Positions 615 through 9,805 are shown, counted from the first letter of the stretch. The stretch: DNA of 32,000 nucleotides from Horticoccus luteus (GCF_019464535.1 NZ_CP080507.1:2520001-2552000), one strand, 5' to 3'. The notes: generated by a model not told the origin, from the letters alone. Translations and numbers: made by a program.

Positions 615-1546
615 AATCCGCCCAACGCGAACTCGCCCTCCTCGGCGCCATTCTCGTGCTCGGCCTGCTGCCGCTCTTCGGCGTGCCGGGTTTTTATACC
701 GTGGCCAATCTGCGCAACCTCGCGCTCGACAACGTGCCCGTTCTGGTCACCGCGATCGGCATGACCGCCGTCATCATCGTTGCGGAAATCGACATCTCGG
801 TCGGCTCGGTCTTCGTCGTTTGCGGCGCCCTCGCCGGCCTGACCGCTCAAGCAGGACTGCCGATGCCGTTGGTCGTCGCCACCACCCTCGGCGCCGGCGC
901 GCTCTTCGGCGCCGTCAACGGTCTGCTCGTCGCCTGGGCCCGCGTGCCGTCGATCATCGCGACGCTCGGCACCATGGCGATCCTCCGCAACGGCATCATC
1001 CACGCGACGGGCGGCGCGTGGATTCAAAATCTGCCCCCCGGATTCCAATGGTTCGGCCTCGGCCAAAACCTCGCGCAACCTGTCTATCTCATGCTCGCGC
1101 TCGCCCTCGTTGTCGCGGGTGTCTGGACGCTGCGGCAGACGTCGCTCGGCCGCTCGCTTTATGCGGTCGGTTGCGACCGGGTGGCGGCGCGGCGCGTCGG
1201 GCTCAATCCGCCCGCCATCATTCTCGCCGCGTTCGTTCTCCTCGGCACGCTCACGGCGATGGCCGCGTTGTTCAACTTCACGCGTTATCCCACCATCGAA
1301 ACCAACGCCGGCGTGGGCTTCGAGCTGCAGGTCATCGCGGCTGTCGTCGTCGGCGGCACGGCAGTCACCGGCGGCCGGGGCAATCTCCTCGGCACGCTCC
1401 TGGGCGTCGTGCTGCTGGGCATGATCGGCACCGTGCTCACGTTTTTGCACATCAACCCGGCGTGGGCGCAGGCGATCGAGGGACTCATCATCCTCGCCGC
1501 CGTCGTCAGCGACACCGCGTTTGGGCGGGACCACGCGCATGACTGA
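611..1546 (+). CDS. Sugar ABC transporter permease (RbsC-type)
   Basis: 311 aa polytopic hydrophobic ORF with RbsC-type permease patterns (IIATLGTMAILRNG, VVVGGTAVTGGRGNLLGT). It is translationally coupled to both neighbours. Confidence 0.85.
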   Translation: MKSAQRELALLGAILVLGLLPLFGVPGFYTVANLRNLALDNVPVLVTAIGMTAVIIVAEIDISVGSVFVVCGALAGLTAQAGLPMPLVVATTLGAGALFGAVNGLLVAWARVPSIIATLGTMAILRNGIIHATGGAWIQNLPPGFQWFGLGQNLAQPVYLMLALALVVAGVWTLRQTSLGRSLYAVGCDRVAARRVGLNPPAIILAAFVLLGTLTAMAALFNFTRYPTIETNAGVGFELQVIAAVVVGGTAVTGGRGNLLGTLLGVVLLGMIGTVLTFLHINPAWAQAIEGLIILAAVVSDTAFGRDHAHD

Positions 1547-3605
1547 GACCGCTACCGCTCGCCCGCCTTGGCTGGCCCGCTGGTGCCCCAACGCCGAATG
1601 GGTGCTGTTGGTCGTGTTGGCGCTGGAGATTTCCGTCTTTGGACTGACCGCGCCCCATTTTTTCACGACCAACAACGCATTTGATCTGGTCCGCCAGGCC
1701 GCCGAGATCGGACTGCTCGTGCTCGGCCTCACGCCCGTGATCAAAACCGGCGGCATCGATCTTTCGGTCGCTTCCATGATGGGCTTGGCCGCCGTCGTGC
1801 TCGGCGGCGCCTGGTCGGTCCTCGGACTTCCCCTCGGCGCGGCGCTCGTCGTTACCCTGCTGCTCGGAGCCGCGGGCGGCGCGTTTCACGGCCTGCTCAT
1901 CACCCGCCTCCGCGTGCCGCCGCTCATCGTCACGCTCGGCACTTTCTCGCTCTATCGCGGCCTCGCTGAGGCGATGACCGGCGGTTACGCCAGCTACTCG
2001 GGTTTTCCGACATGGTTTCTCAACCTCGGCCAAGGTCGCGTCGCCGGTTGGGTGCCCGCGCAACTGCCCTTGTTCGCAGCCGTATTCGCCGGCCTCTGGC
2101 TCATGCTGCACCGCGCGAAACTTGGCCGCGAAATCGCCGCCCTCGGCTTCAACGCCGCCGGAGCGCGCTTCGCGGGCGTCCGCGTCAACCGCGTGCTTGT
2201 CCGCGCCTACGTGATTTGCGGCCTCTGCTCCGCGCTCGCCGGCCTCATTTACGTCGCCCGCATCGGCCAGGCCAAGGCGGACGCCGGCTTCGGCTACGAA
2301 TTGCCCGCGATCGCCGCCGTCGTGCTGGGTGGCACGTCCATCATGGGCGGACGCGGCACGCTCCACGGCTCGTTGCTCGGTCTGCTCTGCCTCGTCGTGT
2401 TGCAAAACGGCCTGCGCCTCGCCGGTGAACCCGAGGAAATCGCCGGCTTGGGCGCCGGACTGATTCTTCTGGTCGCCATCATTCTCAACCAGTCGTGGAC
2501 GCGGATGCGCCGCACCCGTCAGATTTCCTTGCTCCGCCCATCGACCCCACTTGCTCCGGAGGAATTCCACATGAAAAACAGCCAGATCGCCCTCCTCGTC
2601 GCCGCGATGTTTGCGGCCGCCCTCCTCGTCGCCGGGAGTAACTGGTGGCTCGTTCGCTCGCTGCGCAGCGTCGCCGCCACCCGCACCGCCCCCGCGCCCG
2701 CCAAACTTACGATCGCCGTCACGCCAAAAACCACCACCGATCCTTATTTCGTCACCTGCAAAGAGGGCGCCGACGAAGCCGCGCGCGAACTCGACGTCAA
2801 TCTCCTCTGGAACGGCCCCATCACCGGCGATCCCGCCGCCCAGAACGAAATCGTCAACGGCTGGATTACCAAGGGCGTGGACGTGATCGCCGGCGCGCTC
2901 GTCAACCCCGCCGCCATCTCGTCCGTCCTGCGCAAAGCCCAGAACCAAGGCATCACCGTGCTCACTTGGGATTCCGACGCCGAGCCCGACGCGCGCGAAT
3001 TCTTCGTTAACCAAGCCACCGCCGAAGGCATCGGCTCCACCCTCGCCGACGAAGGCGCCCGCCTCGCCGACGGCCAGGGGCAATACGCCATCATCACCGC
3101 GACCCTGACTGACACGAACCAGAACGAATGGATCAAAGCCATCAAGGCGCGCATGGCGGCCGCGCATCCCGGCATGACCCTCGCGACGATTCATCCCTGC
3201 GACGGCCAGCGCGACAAAGCCATGACCGAGGCCCGCAACATCGTGCAGGCCTACCCCGGCGTAAAAGTGCTCATCGCCATCTGCTCGCCCGCCGTCCCCG
3301 GCGCCGCCGAGGCGCTCAAGCAGGCCGACAACCACAACGTAAAACTGACCGGTCTTTCCACGCCCAACCTCTGCCGCGATTACCTTCACGAAGGTTGGGT
3401 GCAAAGCATCGTGCTCTGGAATACCCGCGATCTCGGCTACCTCACCGTGTACGCATCCGCGGCGGCCCGCGAAGGCCGGCTCAAGCGTGGCGACACGAGT
3501 TTCACCGCCGGCCGGCTCGGCCCACTCAAGGTGGACCGCGACCAAATCCTTCTCGGACAACCTCTGGTCTTCACCACGGCCAACATTGATCAGTTTCACT
3601 TTTGA
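1539..3605 (+). CDS. ABC transporter permease fused in frame to a periplasmic sugar-binding (RhaS/LsrB/RbsB-like) domain
   Basis: The single open frame 1521..3605 (694 aa) has no internal stop. The ATG at 1539 overlaps the upstream stop. The N-terminal ~330 aa form a second RbsC-type permease (IVTLGTFSLYRG, VVLGGTSIMGGRGTLHGS). From the in-frame ATG at 2571 (MKNSQIALLVAAMFAAALLVAG) onward there is a 344 aa periplasmic-binding-protein-like domain with an N-terminal signal-anchor-like helix. Confidence 0.75.
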   Translation: MTETATARPPWLARWCPNAEWVLLVVLALEISVFGLTAPHFFTTNNAFDLVRQAAEIGLLVLGLTPVIKTGGIDLSVASMMGLAAVVLGGAWSVLGLPLGAALVVTLLLGAAGGAFHGLLITRLRVPPLIVTLGTFSLYRGLAEAMTGGYASYSGFPTWFLNLGQGRVAGWVPAQLPLFAAVFAGLWLMLHRAKLGREIAALGFNAAGARFAGVRVNRVLVRAYVICGLCSALAGLIYVARIGQAKADAGFGYELPAIAAVVLGGTSIMGGRGTLHGSLLGLLCLVVLQNGLRLAGEPEEIAGLGAGLILLVAIILNQSWTRMRRTRQISLLRPSTPLAPEEFHMKNSQIALLVAAMFAAALLVAGSNWWLVRSLRSVAATRTAPAPAKLTIAVTPKTTTDPYFVTCKEGADEAARELDVNLLWNGPITGDPAAQNEIVNGWITKGVDVIAGALVNPAAISSVLRKAQNQGITVLTWDSDAEPDAREFFVNQATAEGIGSTLADEGARLADGQGQYAIITATLTDTNQNEWIKAIKARMAAAHPGMTLATIHPCDGQRDKAMTEARNIVQAYPGVKVLIAICSPAVPGAAEALKQADNHNVKLTGLSTPNLCRDYLHEGWVQSIVLWNTRDLGYLTVYASAAAREGRLKRGDTSFTAGRLGPLKVDRDQILLGQPLVFTTANIDQFHF

Positions 3606-3648
3606 GCCCGTCGGCGGCCCGTACTGTTATGTTTCGACGCCGCTCGCT

Positions 3649-3790
3649 CCCGCCGCGCGATCGCAAAAAAGCCGGGCTCTTCCGGGATCAACGGGCGTGC
3701 CATGTCTCCCACGTCATCGATGGCCTTCGTTCCGTCGACTACATATTACAAAGCCTGACCCCATTCGACTCGTTCCCCATTCGACTCGTT
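3649..3790 (-). repeat. Repeat copy A: truncated 5' end (leader plus ~17 codons) of a RAYT-like gene, a ~25 nt REP-like motif, and a 19+16 bp tandem unit
   Basis: 3653-3774 matches 6992-7113 with 2 mismatches (3716/7055, 3734/7073). On the minus strand it reads ...ggggtcaggctttgtaatatgtagtcgacgg...ATGGCACGCCCGTTG (MARPL...). This is collinear with the leader and start (MARPLRM) of the intact RAYT-like gene at 6926. Confidence 0.8.
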
Positions 3791-3804
3791 CCTGGGGGTC
3801 GACG

Positions 3805-4026
3805 ATGTTTGTGATTGATGGCAAAAAATACTTCGGAGGTGATGTTAGCTATTATTTTCAAGGAATGGCAAGTGCAGCTCGCGGATGGAGTAGCCCAAAT
3901 ACGAGAATGATAGTGTGGTATAATACCTTTAAGCATCAGCCACGCAGGAGCGATGAGGCAGTGCTAGGTCTTGTAAAGTGGTCGGAGAGAGGTTTTGAGT
4001 TTTACAACTCGCGATATAGAAAGTGA
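3805..4026 (+). CDS. Hypothetical small protein (73 aa), AT-rich cassette gene 1
   Basis: The ATG at 3805 follows a GGGGG run (3794-3798). Only the AT-rich part of track ORF 3487..4026 is taken as coding. I recognise no family. The stop overlaps the next possible start (GTGA at 4023-4026). Confidence 0.45.
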   Translation: MFVIDGKKYFGGDVSYYFQGMASAARGWSSPNTRMIVWYNTFKHQPRRSDEAVLGLVKWSERGFEFYNSRYRK

Positions 4027-4538
4027 AAGCGATGAAAAAATTAAATTTAATGGGATGGTTTCTAATTGCTATATTTTTTATAGCGTTAGCAATAGTGGGT
4101 GCCGATGTTTACTTGTCGTTTACGCGAGAAAGGAGGGAATGTCGTAAGTTGATGTCAGTGGTTTCGAGCATAGGTGTTAAGTCTTACCTTTTGCAGTGGG
4201 TAGATAAAAATGCCAATATCGCTGGCGTTGAAAAATACACTGTGTCATTACCAGGAAGTCTCAGTAACGTAATATTAGATCGACCGGTGGACTGGCAGTT
4301 TTTGCACTTTCGGGCAGAGCAGTCGAAAGTTGCTTTGATCGGGCGTCATAATAAGTATGAAGCCGCTTTTTTCTATGAGGGTCGCCGTAGTGGAATTTTG
4401 GTGCCATTTAATCAAGAGCTTGGAGATGTTACAAAATATTTTGTCGATAAGTGGGGAGAAAAAATAGATAGTCGCGTTTATATAATTTGCGACCTAGGAG
4501 ATTACGATCAGGAGGATAGGAAAAGCGGCAACCAATAG
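4023..4538 (+). CDS. Hypothetical membrane-anchored protein (171 aa), AT-rich cassette gene 2
   Basis: ORF 4023..4538 (GTG start; alternative ATG at 4032). It has an N-terminal TM helix (LMGWFLIAIFFIALAIVGADVYL) followed by a ~130 aa soluble domain. AT-rich codon usage differs from the rest of the window (14/60 G+C at 4021-4080). No family recognised. Confidence 0.6.
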   Translation: MKAMKKLNLMGWFLIAIFFIALAIVGADVYLSFTRERRECRKLMSVVSSIGVKSYLLQWVDKNANIAGVEKYTVSLPGSLSNVILDRPVDWQFLHFRAEQSKVALIGRHNKYEAAFFYEGRRSGILVPFNQELGDVTKYFVDKWGEKIDSRVYIICDLGDYDQEDRKSGNQ

Positions 4539-4552
4539 CGGGCGGGTATGAT

Positions 4553-5924
4553 CCGGAGTGATAGGTGACAGATTATCCGGGGTGATGGGTTACACTCTGC
4601 GGCACTATGCCGTGGAAAACCACCACCCCAATGGAAGAGATCATTCGTTTCGTCAGCTTGGCGCAGACCGATCGGTTCACGATCACGGATCTGTGCGAGC
4701 AGTTTAACATCAGCCGGAAGACGGCCTATAAGCATTTGGAACGCTACGCCGAAGGCGGCCTGCGGCTTTGAGCCCGCGCAGCCACCGCCCGCACCGTTTT
4801 CCGCAGCGCACGGACGCGCAGATCGAGAAGCTGGTCCTGGCGGAGCGTCGCCTGCACCGGACCTGGGGGCCGAAAAAGATCCAGGACTTGCTGGAGACCA
4901 AGCACGGGGTGGAACGGCCACCGGCTTGCAGCACCATCGGCGAGATCCTGCGGCGGCACGGGCAGAGCGTGAAGCGCCGCCGTCGGCCCGGGGTTTATCC
5001 CGCCCTCAACCAGGCGCTGACGGTGCCCAATCAGCCCAATCAGGTCTGGACCGTGGACTTCAAAGGCTGGTTCCTGCTCGGCAACAACCAGCGCTGCGAT
5101 CCGCTGACCATCTGCGACCGCTACAGCCATTACGTCATGGCGGTGCGGGGCCAGCCCGACCAGCAGTTCCGCCGGACCCTGGGCGACCTTCCGGGCGCTC
5201 ATGCGCCAGACCGGCCTGCCCGAGATCATCCGGGTGGACCTTGGATCGCCCTTCGCCTCGACCGGGCTGGGCCGGCTCTCCGCCTTGAGCGTGGGGTGGA
5301 TTGAGCAGGGCATCGAAGTCGAGTTCACCCGCCCGGCCTCGCCACAGGACAACGGCTCGCACGAGCGCATGCACCGCGATCTCAAGGCCGAGGCCACCCA
5401 ACCTCCTTCGCCCACCTTCACCGCCCAGCAGCGCCGCTTCGAGCGCTGGCGGCACACCTACAACCACGAACGACCGCACGAGGCGCTGAACCTGCAACGT
5501 CCGGCCGAGGTTTACCGTCCCAGCACCCGACGCTTGAACGAGCACGACAAACCCATCGTCTATGCCCCGGAGTTCGAGGTGAAGGTGGTCAGCACCAGCG
5601 GCCATGTCGCCCACGAAGGAAAGAACTACCACCTCGGCGAAGCCTTCGCCGGCAAACGCGTGGGCCTGCGCCGTGCTCCCGACGGCCAGACGGAACTGCA
5701 TTTTGCCAATATCCTGCTCGGCCATCTGCGCTTTGATGCCGAAGGTGGCCGCTTCAAACCGACCGCCTACGTCGCTCCCTTCCGCCCGATCCATCCAGAA
5801 AAGGGAGGGAGCCAAGCCCCCTCCCTTAAACCCTCCCCTTAAATATACTTGGCCTCCAACCCTCCCAACCTATCAACAAAAAGTGTCACCTATCACTCCG
5901 GATAGTTTGTTACCTATCACCGGG
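4553..5924 (+). mobile_element. IS481-like insertion sequence (~1.37 kb) with ~45 bp imperfect terminal inverted repeats
   Basis: The left end (4553-4596, ccggagtgataggtgacagattatccggggtgatgggttaca) matches the reverse complement of the right end (5884-5924, tgtcacctatcactccggatagtttgttacctatcaccggg). The ends enclose a DDE/rve-type transposase reading frame. Confidence 0.8.
4607..5842 (+). pseudogene. IS481-family DDE transposase, disrupted by two frameshifts
   Basis: The HTH-containing N-terminus (MPWKTTTPMEEIIRFVSLAQTDRFTITDLCEQFNISRKTAYKHLERYAEGGLRL) is in frame 2 and stops at 4769-4771. The sequence continues in frame 1 (PRSHRPHRFPQRTD...VWTVDFKG...) to about 5185. It then returns to frame 2 (GLPEIIRVDLGSPF...NGSHERMHRDLK...) up to 5842. 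The DDE-like residues are present. There is no slippery heptamer at either junction. Confidence 0.8.
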
Positions 5925-5960: not shown

Positions 5961-6926
5961 TCATGCCAGTTGCTTGCTCAATCGCACATCCGGGTTTCGT
6001 TTCCAACGCCCAACCTGACGACTGACTTCGTGCAGGCCTCCCATATTGAGGGCCTCTCCCAGCCAGCGGTTGGTCGCCGTCGTGCGGTCTTTCATCGCCG
6101 CCGCCAACGCGGTTTTCCAAACCGCTGATTTCCTTTCCTGCTCCACGTCCGCGGGCCCGCGTTTGAGTCTGGCCAGCAAGGCCGCTAACTCTTCCTGCCA
6201 AAGCGCCTCGCGGGTCGCCTTCATTTCGGCGGCCATCCGCCGTCCCTGCCCCACCAGAGCCCGGTGCTCCTGCAGGACTGCTTTGGCAAAACTCGTGGTT
6301 CCCACGATCCACCCTTTCGACATCTCGGCAAACCTCTGCTCCTTCTGGGCCGGTTCATCCTCGGCGAGCCAGTTCAGATATCCCAGGTATTTCTTCCGCC
6401 CGGCGGCGGTGTCCGCAAGGGATCCGGCATGCGTCAACGCCGGTTGCGGATCATACCAGTCGGGACGTTTTTTCGAATTCATCAACCAGTGCAGGCTCGC
6501 CCAGGGATATTCGGTCAGGTCGGCGACGTTTCGCAACCCGGCGCGGACGGGATTGAGATGGATGTAATGACAAAGCGGGCCGAGCCCGGCGTCGGGATCG
6601 ACGATCAAACTCTTGTAACGACCTTGGAAAAGATGGCCACGTTCCTCACGCAATCGGTTGAACCGCACCGCGAAGGTCCCCTGCAACCAGCGCATCCCTT
6701 CCACCAAATTGGCGGCGGGCGTGGAGACCGCCAGATGGTAGTGATTCGACATCAGGCACCACGCATGCACCTGCCAGCCCGTTTTGGCACAGGCTTCATC
6801 CAAACACGTCAGGAACGCCGCCCGGGTCTTTTCACTCCGAAAAATATCCGCCCGGTAATTGCCCCGGTTGATCACATGATAAACCCCCGCCTCCGATTCC
6901 ATCCGCAATGGTCTCGCCATGCCCAC
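5961..6926 (-). CDS. REP-associated tyrosine transposase (RAYT)-like HUH / IS200-like Y1 transposase with a C-terminal HTH-like tail
   Basis: 321 aa ORF with the HUH motif (LMSNHYHLAV) and the tyrosine motif region (CHYIHLNPVRAGL). The N-terminus MARPLRMESEAGVYHVINRGN is typical of this family. Copies of a ~25 nt motif lie just outside both ends. Confidence 0.85.
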   Translation of the reverse strand: MGMARPLRMESEAGVYHVINRGNYRADIFRSEKTRAAFLTCLDEACAKTGWQVHAWCLMSNHYHLAVSTPAANLVEGMRWLQGTFAVRFNRLREERGHLFQGRYKSLIVDPDAGLGPLCHYIHLNPVRAGLRNVADLTEYPWASLHWLMNSKKRPDWYDPQPALTHAGSLADTAAGRKKYLGYLNWLAEDEPAQKEQRFAEMSKGWIVGTTSFAKAVLQEHRALVGQGRRMAAEMKATREALWQEELAALLARLKRGPADVEQERKSAVWKTALAAAMKDRTTATNRWLGEALNMGGLHEVSRQVGRWKRNPDVRLSKQLA

Positions 6927-6953
6927 ACTCCATTAATGGCTTTCGCCCCGTCA

Positions 6954-6977
6954 ACTACATATTACAAAACCTGACCC
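6954..6977 (+). repeat. REP-like motif copy, immediately 5' of the RAYT-like gene
   Basis: actacatattacaaaacctgaccc. It has one internal mismatch to the copies at 3738-3762 and 7077-7101. Confidence 0.7.
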
Positions 6978-6987
6978 TTGACCGGTG

Positions 6988-7132
6988 CCCTCCGCGCGAT
7001 CGCAAAAAAGCCGGGCTCTTCCGGGATCAACGGGCGTGCCATGTCTCCCACGTCGTCGATGGCCTTCGTTCCCTCGACTACATATTACAAAGCCTGACCC
7101 CATTCGACTCGTTTGACCCCATTCGACTCGTT
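6988..7132 (-). repeat. Repeat copy B: same truncated RAYT-like 5' remnant, REP-like motif, and a perfect 2 x 19 bp tandem
   Basis: 6992-7113 matches 3653-3774 (2 mismatches). It is followed by tgaccccattcgactcgtt twice (7095-7113, 7114-7132). Confidence 0.8.
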
Positions 7133-7244: not shown

Positions 7245-7778
7245 TCACTGCTTTTTCTCGCGATACACCTGGATGTCACTGACGACGATTTCCCCCGCCC
7301 AAACATCGTAACGCTTCCCAAAAGTTTCGGTGATCCGAAGTGTGATCTGCACCTGATCCAGGCGGGACAACTCATACACGAGCTCCTGCCAACGAATCGT
7401 TACCGCCTCATTTGGCCGAAGCAGAACGGGCTTCAGATCAGCTTCGGGCACCACGGTTGTCACGCCGTCGTCGTTCGTGTCGAGATCCCAGACCAGCGTG
7501 GTTCTCGTGTAGTTCGGACCGGCTTCGCCTCCCTTGATAAAATCAGCAGTCGGGATTCGGAGCGACTTGGTCCCTTTATTTGTGATCACCACCTTGTATC
7601 TCGCGAGGTAGGCATCTCGCTCTTTCAGTTTGTCGGGTGCGTTCGGATCGAACTCATATTTCAACGCACTGACAGTCGCGGTGGCGTGCATGGCATCGGC
7701 CGCACGCAGACTTTTTGGGAAGAGCCATCCCGTGAGAAACAGGCCAAGAACAATTCGAAGAGGTGTCTTTGTAATCAT
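7245..7778 (-). CDS. Exported hypothetical protein; candidate cognate immunity protein of the upstream Rhs C-terminal domain
   Basis: The internal ATG at 7778 of track ORF 7245..7811 overlaps the upstream stop (ATGA, 7775-7778). It has a Sec-type signal peptide (MITKTPLRIVLGLFLTGWLFPKSLRAADA). G+C is reduced (31/60 at 7561-7620). No family recognised. Confidence 0.65.
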   Translation of the reverse strand: MITKTPLRIVLGLFLTGWLFPKSLRAADAMHATATVSALKYEFDPNAPDKLKERDAYLARYKVVITNKGTKSLRIPTADFIKGGEAGPNYTRTTLVWDLDTNDDGVTTVVPEADLKPVLLRPNEAVTIRWQELVYELSRLDQVQITLRITETFGKRYDVWAGEIVVSDIQVYREKKQ

Positions 7779-9484
7779 GGTTTTTTGCCTCCCGTGTAAC
7801 TCCACATCCACAGATAGTCACCATCGGTTCCCATCCTCCCCGTGTGAACAGGTCCGCCGGGGCGATGCTCGGTTGTGTATTTGATTAAGTCTTTGGCGGC
7901 ATAAATCGTCTGGCCTTGATAGAAGTATCTCCGTGCCCAGGCATTGGGCGTTCCTCCGCCGGCTGCACCTACCTCACACGCGAAGAAGTAAGCCTTCCCG
8001 GACGGATTCAGGTGATTCGCGAACAGCCTGATCGTGCTCGCCGAAACAGCCTTGCCGTTGATGTAAATGCCGTCGCTGTTTCCGTGTCCGAAGAACCCAA
8101 TCGAATCGACCTTGCCAGGGTTGTTTTTGAACCACTCTGCAATCTCTTTTTCGTTCGATACGCCGACGGACAGGGTGCTCCGAGCATTCGCGCCGGCCTC
8201 GAAGTCCTCGTGCGAAGCAGCACTGTTCAGGAAGTCGCCCTTGTCGGATTTATCATAAAAGCCGACCGAAACCTTGGCGTCCTGCTCGTTTGATGGAAGC
8301 TGCGACTCATGCTGTGCGGCGTTGAGAAGATACTGGAACGCTCCACTAACGGCGCCATTGGCAAACTTGCCTCCGCCGAGCGCTGAGGCCGTTCCACCAA
8401 CAACAGCGGATTCAACAGCGCCGGCATATCCGTTGCCGACGAAGGGCGAAGCCCCGGCTGTGAAGAAGCCCGCGTAAAAGCCATGGCGGAACTGACCTCC
8501 TTGAGCTTCAGAAACGCCACCTTCGGCAACGCCGTGCGCAAGCATGCGCTCAAAAAGTTGATCCTTGTCCGGAAACGCCGACCCGATCCCATAGGTCAGC
8601 CCTCCCGCGATGCCTCCAACAACTGCACCGATCGCACCAGCCTTAAACGCGTCGCCGACACTACCGCCGTTGAGCAATGATCCAGCGAAAGCGGATCCGA
8701 ACCCAGCACCCGCCCCCGCGACTACCGCGCCAAAGGCAGTGAGCGCCGGCGCTCCGGCCACACCAGCCATCGCCTGAAGCGCGACCGCCAGTGAAAAATA
8801 TTGGCCGCACATCGCACCGACTGCGACCAATGCTGCGCCAGCGGTCACGACTGCCGCGACCACAACTGCGACGATGACACCGACATCTTTCAGACTGAAG
8901 TAGCCGCTCGGATCGGTGCCACCCAAGGGATTGTTCGAAAGATAGGAGTACCGGTTGTAATCCTGCGAGTCTCCAGCATCCCCTACGAATGGGTCCGCCG
9001 AGAGGAACCGCCCCAGCACGGGGTCATAGACGCGGCCATTCATGTGGATGAGGCCGAGGTCGTCGAGGTGCTCGTGATCGGTGAAGCCGCGGGTGACTTT
9101 GTAATTGTTGGCCGAGGTGACGAGCGCGGTCGCGTAGGTGCTCAGGTCGACATCGAATCGCTTGCCCCATGCGTCGAAGGCGAAGCGCTTCACGACCTGC
9201 CCGAGTTCGTTGGTCACGGCCGTGATCGAACCAAGCCCATCGGTGTGAAAGTATTGTACTTCGTGGGTCGAGTCATTGCGCTCCACGTAAACGGCGACCC
9301 GGCCCGTCGGCGCCATGATGTAGTGGCGGTTCTCCACCAACGGGCTCCCGCCTGTGCCGGTGACCTTCTCGAAAAGGCTGCCGATGTAGAGCGTGGTGCC
9401 GAGGTGACTCACCTGCTTCACGCGTTCGTGCGCCGCGCCGAAGCTGAATTCGCTAACGTTCTCGACGGTCTTGACGACATGCAT
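7775..9484 (-). CDS. RHS repeat-associated core domain protein, N-terminally truncated (core tail + hydrophobic linker + unassigned C-terminal toxin-like domain); start uncertain
   Basis: The frame is open from 9700 to the stop at 7775. Rhs core-tail motifs are present: YFHTDGLGS, FDAWGKR, LIHMNGRVYDPVLGRFLSADP, NRYSYLSNNPLGGTDPSGYF. The first in-frame ATG is at 9484; GTG candidates lie at 9694, 9610, 9547 and 9529. The part of the track ORF above 9700 is the terminator and antisense tRNA, not coding. Confidence 0.7.
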   Translation of the reverse strand: MHVVKTVENVSEFSFGAAHERVKQVSHLGTTLYIGSLFEKVTGTGGSPLVENRHYIMAPTGRVAVYVERNDSTHEVQYFHTDGLGSITAVTNELGQVVKRFAFDAWGKRFDVDLSTYATALVTSANNYKVTRGFTDHEHLDDLGLIHMNGRVYDPVLGRFLSADPFVGDAGDSQDYNRYSYLSNNPLGGTDPSGYFSLKDVGVIVAVVVAAVVTAGAALVAVGAMCGQYFSLAVALQAMAGVAGAPALTAFGAVVAGAGAGFGSAFAGSLLNGGSVGDAFKAGAIGAVVGGIAGGLTYGIGSAFPDKDQLFERMLAHGVAEGGVSEAQGGQFRHGFYAGFFTAGASPFVGNGYAGAVESAVVGGTASALGGGKFANGAVSGAFQYLLNAAQHESQLPSNEQDAKVSVGFYDKSDKGDFLNSAASHEDFEAGANARSTLSVGVSNEKEIAEWFKNNPGKVDSIGFFGHGNSDGIYINGKAVSASTIRLFANHLNPSGKAYFFACEVGAAGGGTPNAWARRYFYQGQTIYAAKDLIKYTTEHRPGGPVHTGRMGTDGDYLWMWSYTGGKKP

Positions 9485-9702
9485 GGGGGCAATCACGGCG
9501 ATGGTGTCCGGCGCGGTGGAGTCGTCCACGGGTCCTTTTTCAAACACGGTGAATGCTCCCGTCGCGGCGTCGCGCTCGGTCAGCGGCGTGCAGGTGATTT
9601 CCGCCGCCACGCCAAAGCCGTTCGTTGCTTCTTTGAGACGCTCGCCGGGCTTCGACTTGTTGAGCGCCGCTCCGCGCGGCGAGTTGTTTGCCACCGCCCA
9701 AC

Positions 9703-9724
9703 AAAAAACCCGCCTTGCGGCGGG
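9703..9724 (-). terminator. Intrinsic terminator downstream of tRNA-Ala
   Basis: The minus strand reads CCCGCC-gcaa-GGCGGG followed by TTTTTT, starting 6 nt after the tRNA 3' end. Confidence 0.65.
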
Positions 9725-9729
9725 TAAAT

Positions 9730-9805
9730 TGGTGGACCCTAGCGGGTTCGAACCGCTGACCTCCTCAATGCCATTGAGGCGCTCTACCAACTGAGCTAAG
9801 AGCCC
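9730..9805 (-). tRNA. tRNA-Ala (anticodon GGC), CCA encoded
   Basis: Minus strand: GGGCUCUUAGCUCAGUUGGUAGAGCGCCUCAAUGGCAUUGAGGAGGUCAGCGGUUCGAACCCGCUAGGGUCCACCA. It folds as a cloverleaf with a 7 bp acceptor stem containing the G3:U70 alanine identity pair. The anticodon loop is AUGGCAU (GGC) and the T-loop is GGUUCGAACC. Confidence 0.93.

Follow-up and report, generated by a model that had tools for sequence, protein, structure and literature searches.

What does the C-terminal end of the Rhs-like gene K0B96_10485 of Horticoccus luteus encode, and does it form a toxin-immunity pair with the small gene that follows it? We analyzed a 32,000-nucleotide stretch of this genome (NZ_CP080507.1, 2520001-2552000), hereafter called the window. 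The organism belongs to the Opitutaceae, Verrucomicrobiota. A sequence-only reading of the window had noticed a His motif and a Cys motif near the end of the gene and had proposed a caspase-like or DUF4347-like cysteine hydrolase, delivered as Rhs cargo and paired with an exported immunity protein. Our analysis leads us to regard the segment 7778-8320 as probably the C-terminal toxin domain of a TcdB/TcaC-type Rhs/YD polymorphic toxin, likely a thiol hydrolase resembling caspases and the cysteine protease domain (CPD) of TcdB, with a periplasmic immunity partner. The features on which this view is built are the following, with positions counted from the first nucleotide of the window.

7778..8320, minus strand: toxin domain at the C-terminus, 181 aa (residues 459-639 in the 639-aa product); DUF4347-like alpha/beta, as judged from the translation, the homologues, Pfam and a structure model
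8252..8254, minus strand: codon GAT of the invariant Asp481, in the FYD motif, where the first strand ends; candidate for a third residue in the active site
8084..8086, minus strand: codon CAC of the invariant His537, in the FFGHGN motif; candidate catalytic His
7976..7978, minus strand: codon TGT of the invariant Cys573, in the FFACE motif; candidate nucleophile
7775..9694, minus strand: K0B96_10485 / WP_220160856.1, 639 aa plus stop, GTG start at 9694; Rhs remnant bearing the toxin domain
7245..7778, minus strand: K0B96_10480, cognate immunity candidate, 177 aa; Sec-type signal peptide, mature part a beta-sandwich

The translation of 7778-8320 on the minus strand contains both KVDSIGFFGHGNSDGIYINGKAVSASTI and GKAYFFACEVGAAGGG. 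The peptides and the His and Cys codons given by the sequence-only reading were exact, and the spacing that it had put at about 35 residues is 36, from H537 to C573 in the numbering of the 639-aa product. We aligned 11 homologues, whose identity, measured against the window sequence, ranges from 31% to 69%. Only 11 columns of this alignment are invariant, and they include D481 (in FYD), H537 and G538 (the His-Gly pair) and C573. Conservation of the His and the Cys had been named earlier as a check on the proposal, and both residues are indeed invariant in all 11 aligned sequences. A chance pair of motifs was rejected since His and Cys, together with Asp, are invariant across the family. Other assignments were also discarded: a Zn-binding Cys/His site because the conserved ligands are too few; papain-like, NlpC/P60, sortase and LD-transpeptidase enzymes because the residue order or the fold is wrong; a C-X5-R phosphatase loop because no Arg is conserved; and Tox-HDC because it gave no Pfam match.

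The toxin-domain family is very rare, and its members with names come from the Opitutaceae (Verrucomicrobiota). A single-sequence word-index protein search with the domain against 5.8 billion clusters gave no match. An exhaustive HMMER scan of 1.84 billion representatives detected 9 true homologues, a profile search contributed 2 more family members, and inspection of the loci contributed L012, L006 and L007 (locus handles). When the GTDB genome and JGI metagenome sets were scanned, only three more loci turned up, from one Opitutaceae metagenome-assembled genome and two metagenome contigs. No match was obtained by tblastn against plasmids and phages or by megablast against plasmids, and neither the toxin domain nor the immunity protein had any match in NCBIfam or PHROGs. 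Three kinds of family member can be told apart: C-termini of Rhs proteins (P0002, P0005, P0007, P0009 and L012), orphan fragments that begin in the pre-toxin region (P0003 and P0004), and stand-alone proteins of about 187-214 aa (P0006, P0008, P0014 and P0015).

Three stand-alone homologues, at L001 5917-6480, L003 4519-5082 and L005 2199-2765, are 187-188 aa long and keep the Asp, His and Cys. Their N-termini retain a trace of the pre-toxin '(L/F)LN' junction motif, and no immunity gene accompanies them. In L001 and L003, the stand-alone gene sits after those for a DUF4199 membrane protein and a YifB/Mg-chelatase-like protein.

The resemblance to DUF4347 that had been noticed by eye proved real at the profile level. 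Against Pfam DUF4347 (PF14252), the window domain gave an E-value of 4e-4 and 20.6 bits when searched alone and 17.6 bits within the full open reading frame (ORF), below the curated gathering cut-off of 24.6 bits. Domain residues 56-123 align to positions 33-106 of the 164-position profile, a range that spans both motifs. Eight of the nine family members match DUF4347 at profile positions of about 33-128, again over both motifs and with no competing family. P0007 is the sole member above the cut-off (26.8 bits), and it matches the window domain with an HMMER E-value of 3e-18. Because P0007 passes the cut-off and in turn matches the window domain, the link to DUF4347 is transitive, and the domain is DUF4347-like rather than a Pfam member. 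From these profile comparisons, we consider it to be a divergent, sub-threshold relative of DUF4347.

We also modeled the toxin domain with AlphaFold2 (AF2), using a 171-aa construct and the 11-sequence alignment as input. The resulting alpha/beta model, with ten strands and four helices, had a mean predicted local distance difference test score (pLDDT) of 71 and a predicted template modeling score (pTM) of 0.72. In the numbering of the construct, a strand at 61-67 precedes H69 and a strand at 94-103 precedes C105. The sequence-only reading had placed each motif at the end of a strand-like run, which agrees with the model, where each strand ends two positions before its His or Cys. The layout of clan CD peptidases, with the His after one central strand, the Cys after the next and helices between, is present in the model at this pLDDT.

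A Foldseek search of the PDB returned weak clan CD matches (E 0.5-1.5, template modeling (TM) score 0.30-0.37), among them the C11 protease 6n9j (TM 0.32), the CHAT proteases 7y84 (TM 0.37) and 8eey, and caspase-3 1nmq. The Tce1 chain 9qpe_G was in the same list (E 0.91, TM 0.33). In BFVD, caspase-domain proteins accounted for 6 of the top 17 fold matches, individually non-significant. The recurrence of weak clan CD and Tce1 matches in these model-based searches is suggestive but no proof of the fold, and a clan CD fold of the toxin domain is likely. The top BFVD match (E 1.2e-3, TM 0.40) was A0A8S5P2H5, a fragment of a Siphoviridae 'minor capsid protein', which may be a phage polymorphic toxin of the MuF type whose C-terminal domain is similar; at the sequence level, no phage match was found.

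DUF4347 has been tied to secretion-system effectors only recently, through Tce1. Pseudomonas aeruginosa Tce1 (PA0256) contains DUF4347 (PMC8262886), and Tce1 and the related Tce2 (PA2372) are type VI secretion system (T6SS) Hcp3 cargo and putative cysteine proteases (PMC8262886, PMC13323088). Their His/Cys pair superposes on that of the clan CD TcdB CPD, a His/Cys protease has been proposed, and yeast toxicity is abolished in Tce2 C115S (PMC13323088). Like Tce1 and Tce2, the window domain is a small alpha/beta domain with His before Cys and each residue after a strand, and both kinds are modules of secreted effectors or toxins. The ten strands and four helices of its AF2 model equal those of the Tce1 C-terminal domain. 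The His-Cys spacing, however, is 36 residues in the window domain versus 54 in Tce1 and 50 in Tce2. The window-domain family is fused to Rhs/YD proteins, whereas Tce1 and Tce2 are loaded into Hcp, and its exported immunity partner is always present in Rhs-linked loci; no such partner accompanies Tce1 and Tce2, which appear to be anti-eukaryotic.

The domain can also be compared with clan CD family C80 (the CPDs of TcdA/TcdB and of MARTX toxins). The active site of the TcdB CPD is D587/H653/C698 (PMC3516567), and this Asp...His...Cys order equals D481/H537/C573 of the window domain. The C80 CPDs differ in being internal, inositol hexakisphosphate (InsP6)-activated self-processing domains in toxins that work in eukaryotic cells, and no significant sequence or fold match of the window domain to C80 structures was found. 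The sequence-only reading was not aware of any such domain being characterized as an Rhs toxin. A precedent does exist: Zhang et al. (2012) predicted caspase-like C-terminal domains with His and Cys on RHS toxins ('Tox-Caspase'; PMC3482391), and the DUF4347-type T6SS effectors followed in 2021 and 2026. Compared by description, Tox-Caspase shares with the window domain a caspase-like alpha/beta nature, the His and Cys, and a place at the C-terminal end of RHS-repeat toxins. Verrucomicrobia, however, are absent from its taxon list (PMC3482391), and its immunity proteins are Imm36 (alpha+beta) and Imm57 (mostly alpha), whereas the partner of the window domain is all-beta with a signal peptide. 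Literature searches for Rhs toxins that are caspase-like or of clan CD and have periplasmic immunity found no papers. The rare toxin-immunity family is new, while the concept is precedented by Tox-Caspase and by Tce1/Tce2.

The partner gene, K0B96_10480, is tightly coupled to the toxin domain. Its start ATG overlaps the toxin stop as ATGA (ccATGAtt), a Shine-Dalgarno-like GGAGG lies upstream, and its N-terminus is of the Sec type, MITKTPLRIVLGLFLTGWLFPKSLRA/AD. Homologues of the immunity protein (25-31% identity, E 1e-15 to 1e-21, and 83% identity in L012) are encoded immediately downstream of the toxin domain in L002, L004, L006, L007, L008, L009 and L012, and the 4-base overlap recurs in L002, L008, L009 and L012. 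With the window counted, an immunity homologue is present in eight of eight Rhs- or pre-toxin-linked loci and in none of three stand-alone loci. The suggestion that toxin homologues would always be followed by a homologue of the 7245..7778 gene therefore holds for the former and fails for the latter. Signal-peptide-like N-termini occur in all immunity homologues, in line with the exported immunity protein described earlier, and P0022 and P0024 have an LTGC lipobox-like motif. The immunity family comprises nine clusters and equals the toxin family in rarity. Its AF2 model is an all-beta sandwich with a pLDDT of 84 (above 90 in the mature part), for which Foldseek gave a borderline ApaG-like beta-sandwich (E 1.3e-3); we take this model-level similarity to mean an "Ig/Fn3-like sandwich", with no pointer to function.

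Judged from the sequences, the linkage between 7245-7778 and 7778-8320 indicates a standard polymorphic toxin-immunity signature, with a toxin acting in the envelope. An immunity protein must reside where its toxin ends up, and since this one is exported in every homologue, the periplasm or envelope is its toxin's most likely site of action. Where a Sec-exported toxin works in the cytoplasm, as the WapA and CdiA nucleases do, its immunity protein is cytoplasmic. An orphan immunity copy, P0027, is located at L010 8001-8546 on an 8-Mb contig (42% identity, 15 contigs) and also in L011, and no toxin-domain homologue was found upstream of it in L010 or L011.

The Rhs context of the domain is seen most completely in Ereboglobus luteus. 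Its 3640-aa protein P0009 (locus L009) has a signal peptide and fn3, SpvB, FG-GAP, TcdB_toxin_midN, YD-shell and RHS repeat domains, and it ends in the window-type C-terminal domain, as do the Rhs fragments P0002, P0005, P0007 and L012. This architecture matches the TcdB/TcaC-type export route (signal peptide, SpvB, beta-propeller, RHS) that Zhang et al. (2012) described, as a prediction, for caspase-domain toxins (PMC3482391). In the metagenomic L012, a C-terminal domain 84% identical to that of the window is carried on a longer, uninterrupted Rhs core. The window and L012 are 84% identical in the toxin domain and 83% in the immunity protein, versus 63% in the Rhs core and 56% in the pre-toxin region. 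This contrast is the pattern of a mobile toxin-immunity cassette, and the aligned sequences suggest that the cassette was exchanged at the ...GGKFANGAxSGAFxYLxN junction. The ratio of nonsynonymous to synonymous substitution rates (dN/dS) between the window and L012 is 0.087 in the toxin domain and 0.156 in the gene for the immunity protein, values that mostly reflect older history.

L009 (CP023004.1, 686633-713555) contains the intact toxin gene amid conjugation-type genes, with TrbI upstream and a TraG/TrwB-like coupling protein downstream. The intact Ereboglobus toxin may therefore ride on an integrative conjugative element.

The host gene in the window contains much less of this architecture, and its parts are as follows.

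9730..9805, minus strand: tRNA-Ala(GGC); a long 671-codon ORF at 7775-9790 runs into this gene
9708..9725, minus strand: terminator-like hairpin with a T-run, after tRNA-Ala and directly upstream of the Rhs remnant
9464..9721, minus strand: short piece homologous to P0009 residues 2144-2224 (BLASTP 40% identity, E 6e-11), with an in-frame join to the core fragment
8903..9454, minus strand: remaining C-terminal Rhs/YD core piece, aligning to P0009 from residue 3067 onward and to L012
8900..8914, minus strand: DPSGY, autoproteolysis-type motif of the Rhs core C-terminus (PxxxxDPxG-aromatic), where the TIGR03696 match ends
8321..8899, minus strand: pre-toxin region of ~190 residues, 43% Ala+Gly, with hydrophobic segments right after the Rhs cleavage motif

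Because the 671-codon ORF overlaps both tRNA-Ala and the terminator, the true gene start must be further downstream. K0B96_10485 is annotated as "RHS repeat-associated core domain-containing protein", and P0001 is 100% identical to it. Roughly the last 185 residues of the Rhs core are left in this gene. The Rhs-associated core domain TIGR03696 matches at 8903-9112 (ORF residues 227-296; E 1.7e-16, 60.5 bits, cut-off 32.5), and the match terminates in NNPLGGTDPSGY. Hydrophobic pre-toxin segments were located by Kyte-Doolittle analysis at residues 263-326, and they are followed by the conserved junction motifs GGQFRHGFY and GGKFANGAxxxAxxxLxN. The pre-toxin region as a whole is conserved in P0002, P0004, P0005 and P0009, with weak DUF637 matches in relatives.

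Only residues 2144-2224 and 3067-3639 of P0009 have counterparts in the window gene. They are joined in frame, and about 2,140 N-terminal residues and about 840 internal YD-shell residues are missing. The junction of the in-frame ~840-codon deletion reads ...KTVENVS/EFSFGA..., and at this point the YD repeats of L012 continue uninterrupted. A complete YD shell and an N-terminal trafficking module are absent from the window gene and present in L009, and the L012 core is longer and contiguous. On this comparison, the window 'Rhs' gene is a truncated, internally deleted remnant and not a deliverable Rhs toxin. It is therefore in relatives alone, for example the 3640-aa protein of Ereboglobus, that the domain is cargo of an Rhs protein. 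The cargo claim is true of those proteins and not of the window copy, which is no intact Rhs gene. The reading frame is nevertheless intact across the 639 codons of the remnant. The toxin-immunity cassette has a lower GC content than its flanks, and a duplicated tRNA 3' end, as at the att sites of islands, was looked for at the locus and not found.

The window protein shares with Rhs/YD-shell toxins (T6SS Rhs effectors, B. subtilis WapA and the BC components of Tc toxins) an Rhs core and a DPxG-aromatic motif directly before the C-terminal toxin. Its family also shares their translationally coupled immunity gene and their orphan or remnant cassettes, and between the window and L012 the toxin-immunity cassette is better conserved than the core. 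Unlike these toxins, the window copy has no N-terminal trafficking domain, and its shell is mostly deleted. No PAAR, VgrG, T6SS or other secretion genes were found in the 32-kb window.

These observations can be joined into a possible mechanism. In relatives whose protein is intact, the C-terminal region would be housed in the YD shell, and the DPxG-aromatic aspartyl autoprotease site would cut this region free together with the Gly/Ala-rich pre-toxin segment, whose hydrophobic character may aid membrane passage or anchoring. The terminal domain would then act as a Cys573/His537 thiol hydrolase, most likely a caspase/CPD-type protease, in which His537 would lie past the third main strand, Cys573 past the fourth, and Asp481, at the end of the first strand, would assist. 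The toxin would act in the periplasm or envelope of neighboring bacteria, and the beta-sandwich immunity protein would block it in the periplasm by binding. Since the delivery part is lost and the remnant lies beside tRNA-Ala, the window copy would be at most an orphan toxin-immunity cassette. The immunity gene is the part of this cassette most likely to benefit the cell.

Several results weigh against a caspase/CPD-like toxin with a periplasmic immunity partner. The AF2 model is moderately confident (pLDDT 71), and its C-terminal hairpins are poorly predicted. Foldseek had been proposed as a check of the clan CD idea; the weak clan CD and Tce1 matches that recur speak for it, but none was significant against the PDB (best E 0.2), and Rossmann-type dehydrogenases came first in that ranking, scoring as well as the clan CD matches. 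Searches of PDB sequences with the window domain, the family profile and P0007 yielded noise only (nanobodies, UvrA), with no match to any PDB chain, Tce1 chain 9qpe included, and the window domain itself lies under Pfam's DUF4347 cut-off. Tce1 and Tce2 are without immunity genes, were non-toxic to E. coli on re-test and are thought to be anti-eukaryotic (PMC13323088), and the three stand-alone homologues keep Asp, His and Cys with no adjacent immunity gene. A delivery module is absent from the window copy. A promoter scan behind the tRNA-Ala terminator turned up no sigma-70-like site, which is weak evidence because promoters of Verrucomicrobia may differ.

Other explanations account for part of these data. 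The same Asp/His/Cys toxin could be neither a peptidase nor a member of clan CD, being instead a thiol enzyme of a Rossmann- or flavodoxin-like type, for instance an amidase, a deamidase or an acyl/transfer enzyme, with a non-protein envelope substrate such as peptidoglycan or lipid. Its fit to the data comes from the Rossmann-type NAD(P)-binding domains at the top of the PDB Foldseek ranking, which are as weak as the clan CD matches, from the envelope target to which the exported immunity protein points, and from the lack of a significant peptidase family in Pfam, NCBIfam and PDB sequence searches. Many periplasmic toxins, moreover, are cell-wall amidases (T6SS Tae/Tge effectors). However, DUF4347 is the only consistent profile match, and its studied members are modeled as CPD-like His/Cys proteases; caspase-domain proteins recur in two independent fold libraries; and the family alignment shows no conserved Gly-rich loop of the nucleotide-binding kind. 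We therefore consider a non-peptidase enzyme unlikely. Most caspase-like domains of polymorphic toxins are releasing peptidases, according to Zhang et al. (PMC3482391), and the domain might likewise serve only in release or processing, with the hydrophobic Gly/Ala-rich segment, as a membrane-inserting pore former, being the true toxin. The window protein, P0002, P0005 and P0009 share that conserved segment, and a periplasmic immunity protein would also fit a membrane-targeting toxin. This is improbable, as the domain is the C-terminal-most module and so occupies the toxin position, and as P0007 has no hydrophobic segment and P0004 begins after it, yet both keep a downstream immunity homologue. 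The immunity protein also tracks the C-terminal domain (84%/83% versus L012) and not the pre-toxin region (56%).

Alternatively, the domain might be a Tce2-like anti-eukaryotic effector, in which case the downstream exported protein would serve not in immunity but as an accessory, chaperone or adaptor. Toxicity of Tce2 is seen in yeast but not in E. coli, and neither Tce1 nor Tce2 has an immunity gene (PMC13323088); the CPD relatives TcdB CPD and OspB act in eukaryotic cells, and the full-length relative is built like the BC components of Tc toxins. In polymorphic toxin systems, however, a small gene that is closely coupled and co-varies is the signature of immunity. An orphan immunity copy without a toxin in an unrelated 8-Mb genome, and toxin-plus-partner remnants that persist at ordinary chromosomal sites, also argue against this explanation, which we likewise regard as improbable. 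A further explanation bears on the window copy only and not on the function of the domain family: the locus might be non-functional, deletions beside tRNA-Ala having left a pseudogene fragment that is decaying and whose motifs are simply inherited. The loss of ~2,140 N-terminal and ~840 internal residues relative to the Ereboglobus protein, the position of the fragment against a tRNA terminator with no recognizable promoter, the insertion sequence (IS)/integrase fragments and repeats nearby, and the cassette GC below that of the flanks are all consistent with decay. Against it stand a frame intact over 639 codons with an in-frame deletion junction, the intact toxin-immunity overlap and GGAGG, and a low dN/dS versus L012, though this is mostly older history; orphan toxin-immunity cassettes are also commonly retained. 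A dead window locus is a possibility of some substance, although not the one we favor.

We accordingly prefer to read 7778-8320 as the toxin domain of a Rhs/YD polymorphic toxin, with K0B96_10480 as its immunity partner. A more specific version is that a DUF4347-type caspase/CPD-like thiol protease serves as a periplasmic antibacterial toxin, that its partner represents a new exported beta-sandwich immunity family, and that Sec-exported TcB/TcC-like YD-shell proteins deliver it in Verrucomicrobia; taken together, this is tentative. If it were true, DUF4347 would gain an interbacterial role and a defined inhibitor, and a clan CD-like enzyme would join the envelope-targeting toxins. This small Opitutaceae toxin family has a DUF4347-like His/Cys domain at the place where Rhs/YD proteins classically have their toxin. 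With it comes a partner gene, conserved and tightly linked, which Tce1 and Tce2 lack and which is a natural candidate inhibitor, and the pair offers a simple system for asking what DUF4347-like enzymes cleave. The significance for the H. luteus genome itself is small because its copy is a non-deliverable remnant.

One gene near the cassette is transposase-like.

5961..6926, minus strand: REP-associated tyrosine transposase (RAYT)-like (Y1_Tnp) gene, downstream of the immunity gene

The gene order Rhs, immunity, Y1_Tnp is common to H. luteus and E. luteus. Y1_Tnp/RAYT-like genes are found near toxin-family members in the window (5961-6926), L009 (19573-20523), L001 (2744-3733) and L003 (1385-2332), so that a RAYT-like gene also lies close to stand-alone homologues. 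A 126-nt direct repeat (98% identical) occurs in the window at 3649-3774 and 6988-7113, with a partial copy at 6926-6977. The two repeats flank a 3.3-kb stretch with IS/integrase fragments and the RAYT-like Y1_Tnp gene, and no inverted repeats were reported. They may be repetitive extragenic palindromic (REP)-like elements or elements resembling miniature inverted-repeat transposable elements (MITEs), linked to RAYT.

A low-GC stretch (about 0.51, versus about 0.65 in the flanks) contains two plus-strand ORFs, 3487-4026 and 4023-4538, with a 4-base overlap. The product of the second is 171 aa long and has an N-terminal hydrophobic helix, and neither ORF has a Pfam or NCBIfam match. This pair may be another orphan toxin-tail and immunity remnant. 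At 4768-5842 on the plus strand, two overlapping ORFs in different frames encode IS3-type integrase pieces, with an rve_3 match at 5201-5842, and the region looks like a frameshifted or degraded transposase. A single 694-aa ORF at 1521-3605 on the plus strand combines BPD_transp_2 (ATP-binding cassette (ABC) sugar-transporter permease) with Peripla_BP_4 (periplasmic binding protein); either the two are fused or a pair of neighboring genes has been taken for one ORF. The remaining genes of the window are housekeeping genes, namely those for an ABC transporter, TonB/ExbB, LacZ, MutS, DAHP synthase and NAD synthase.

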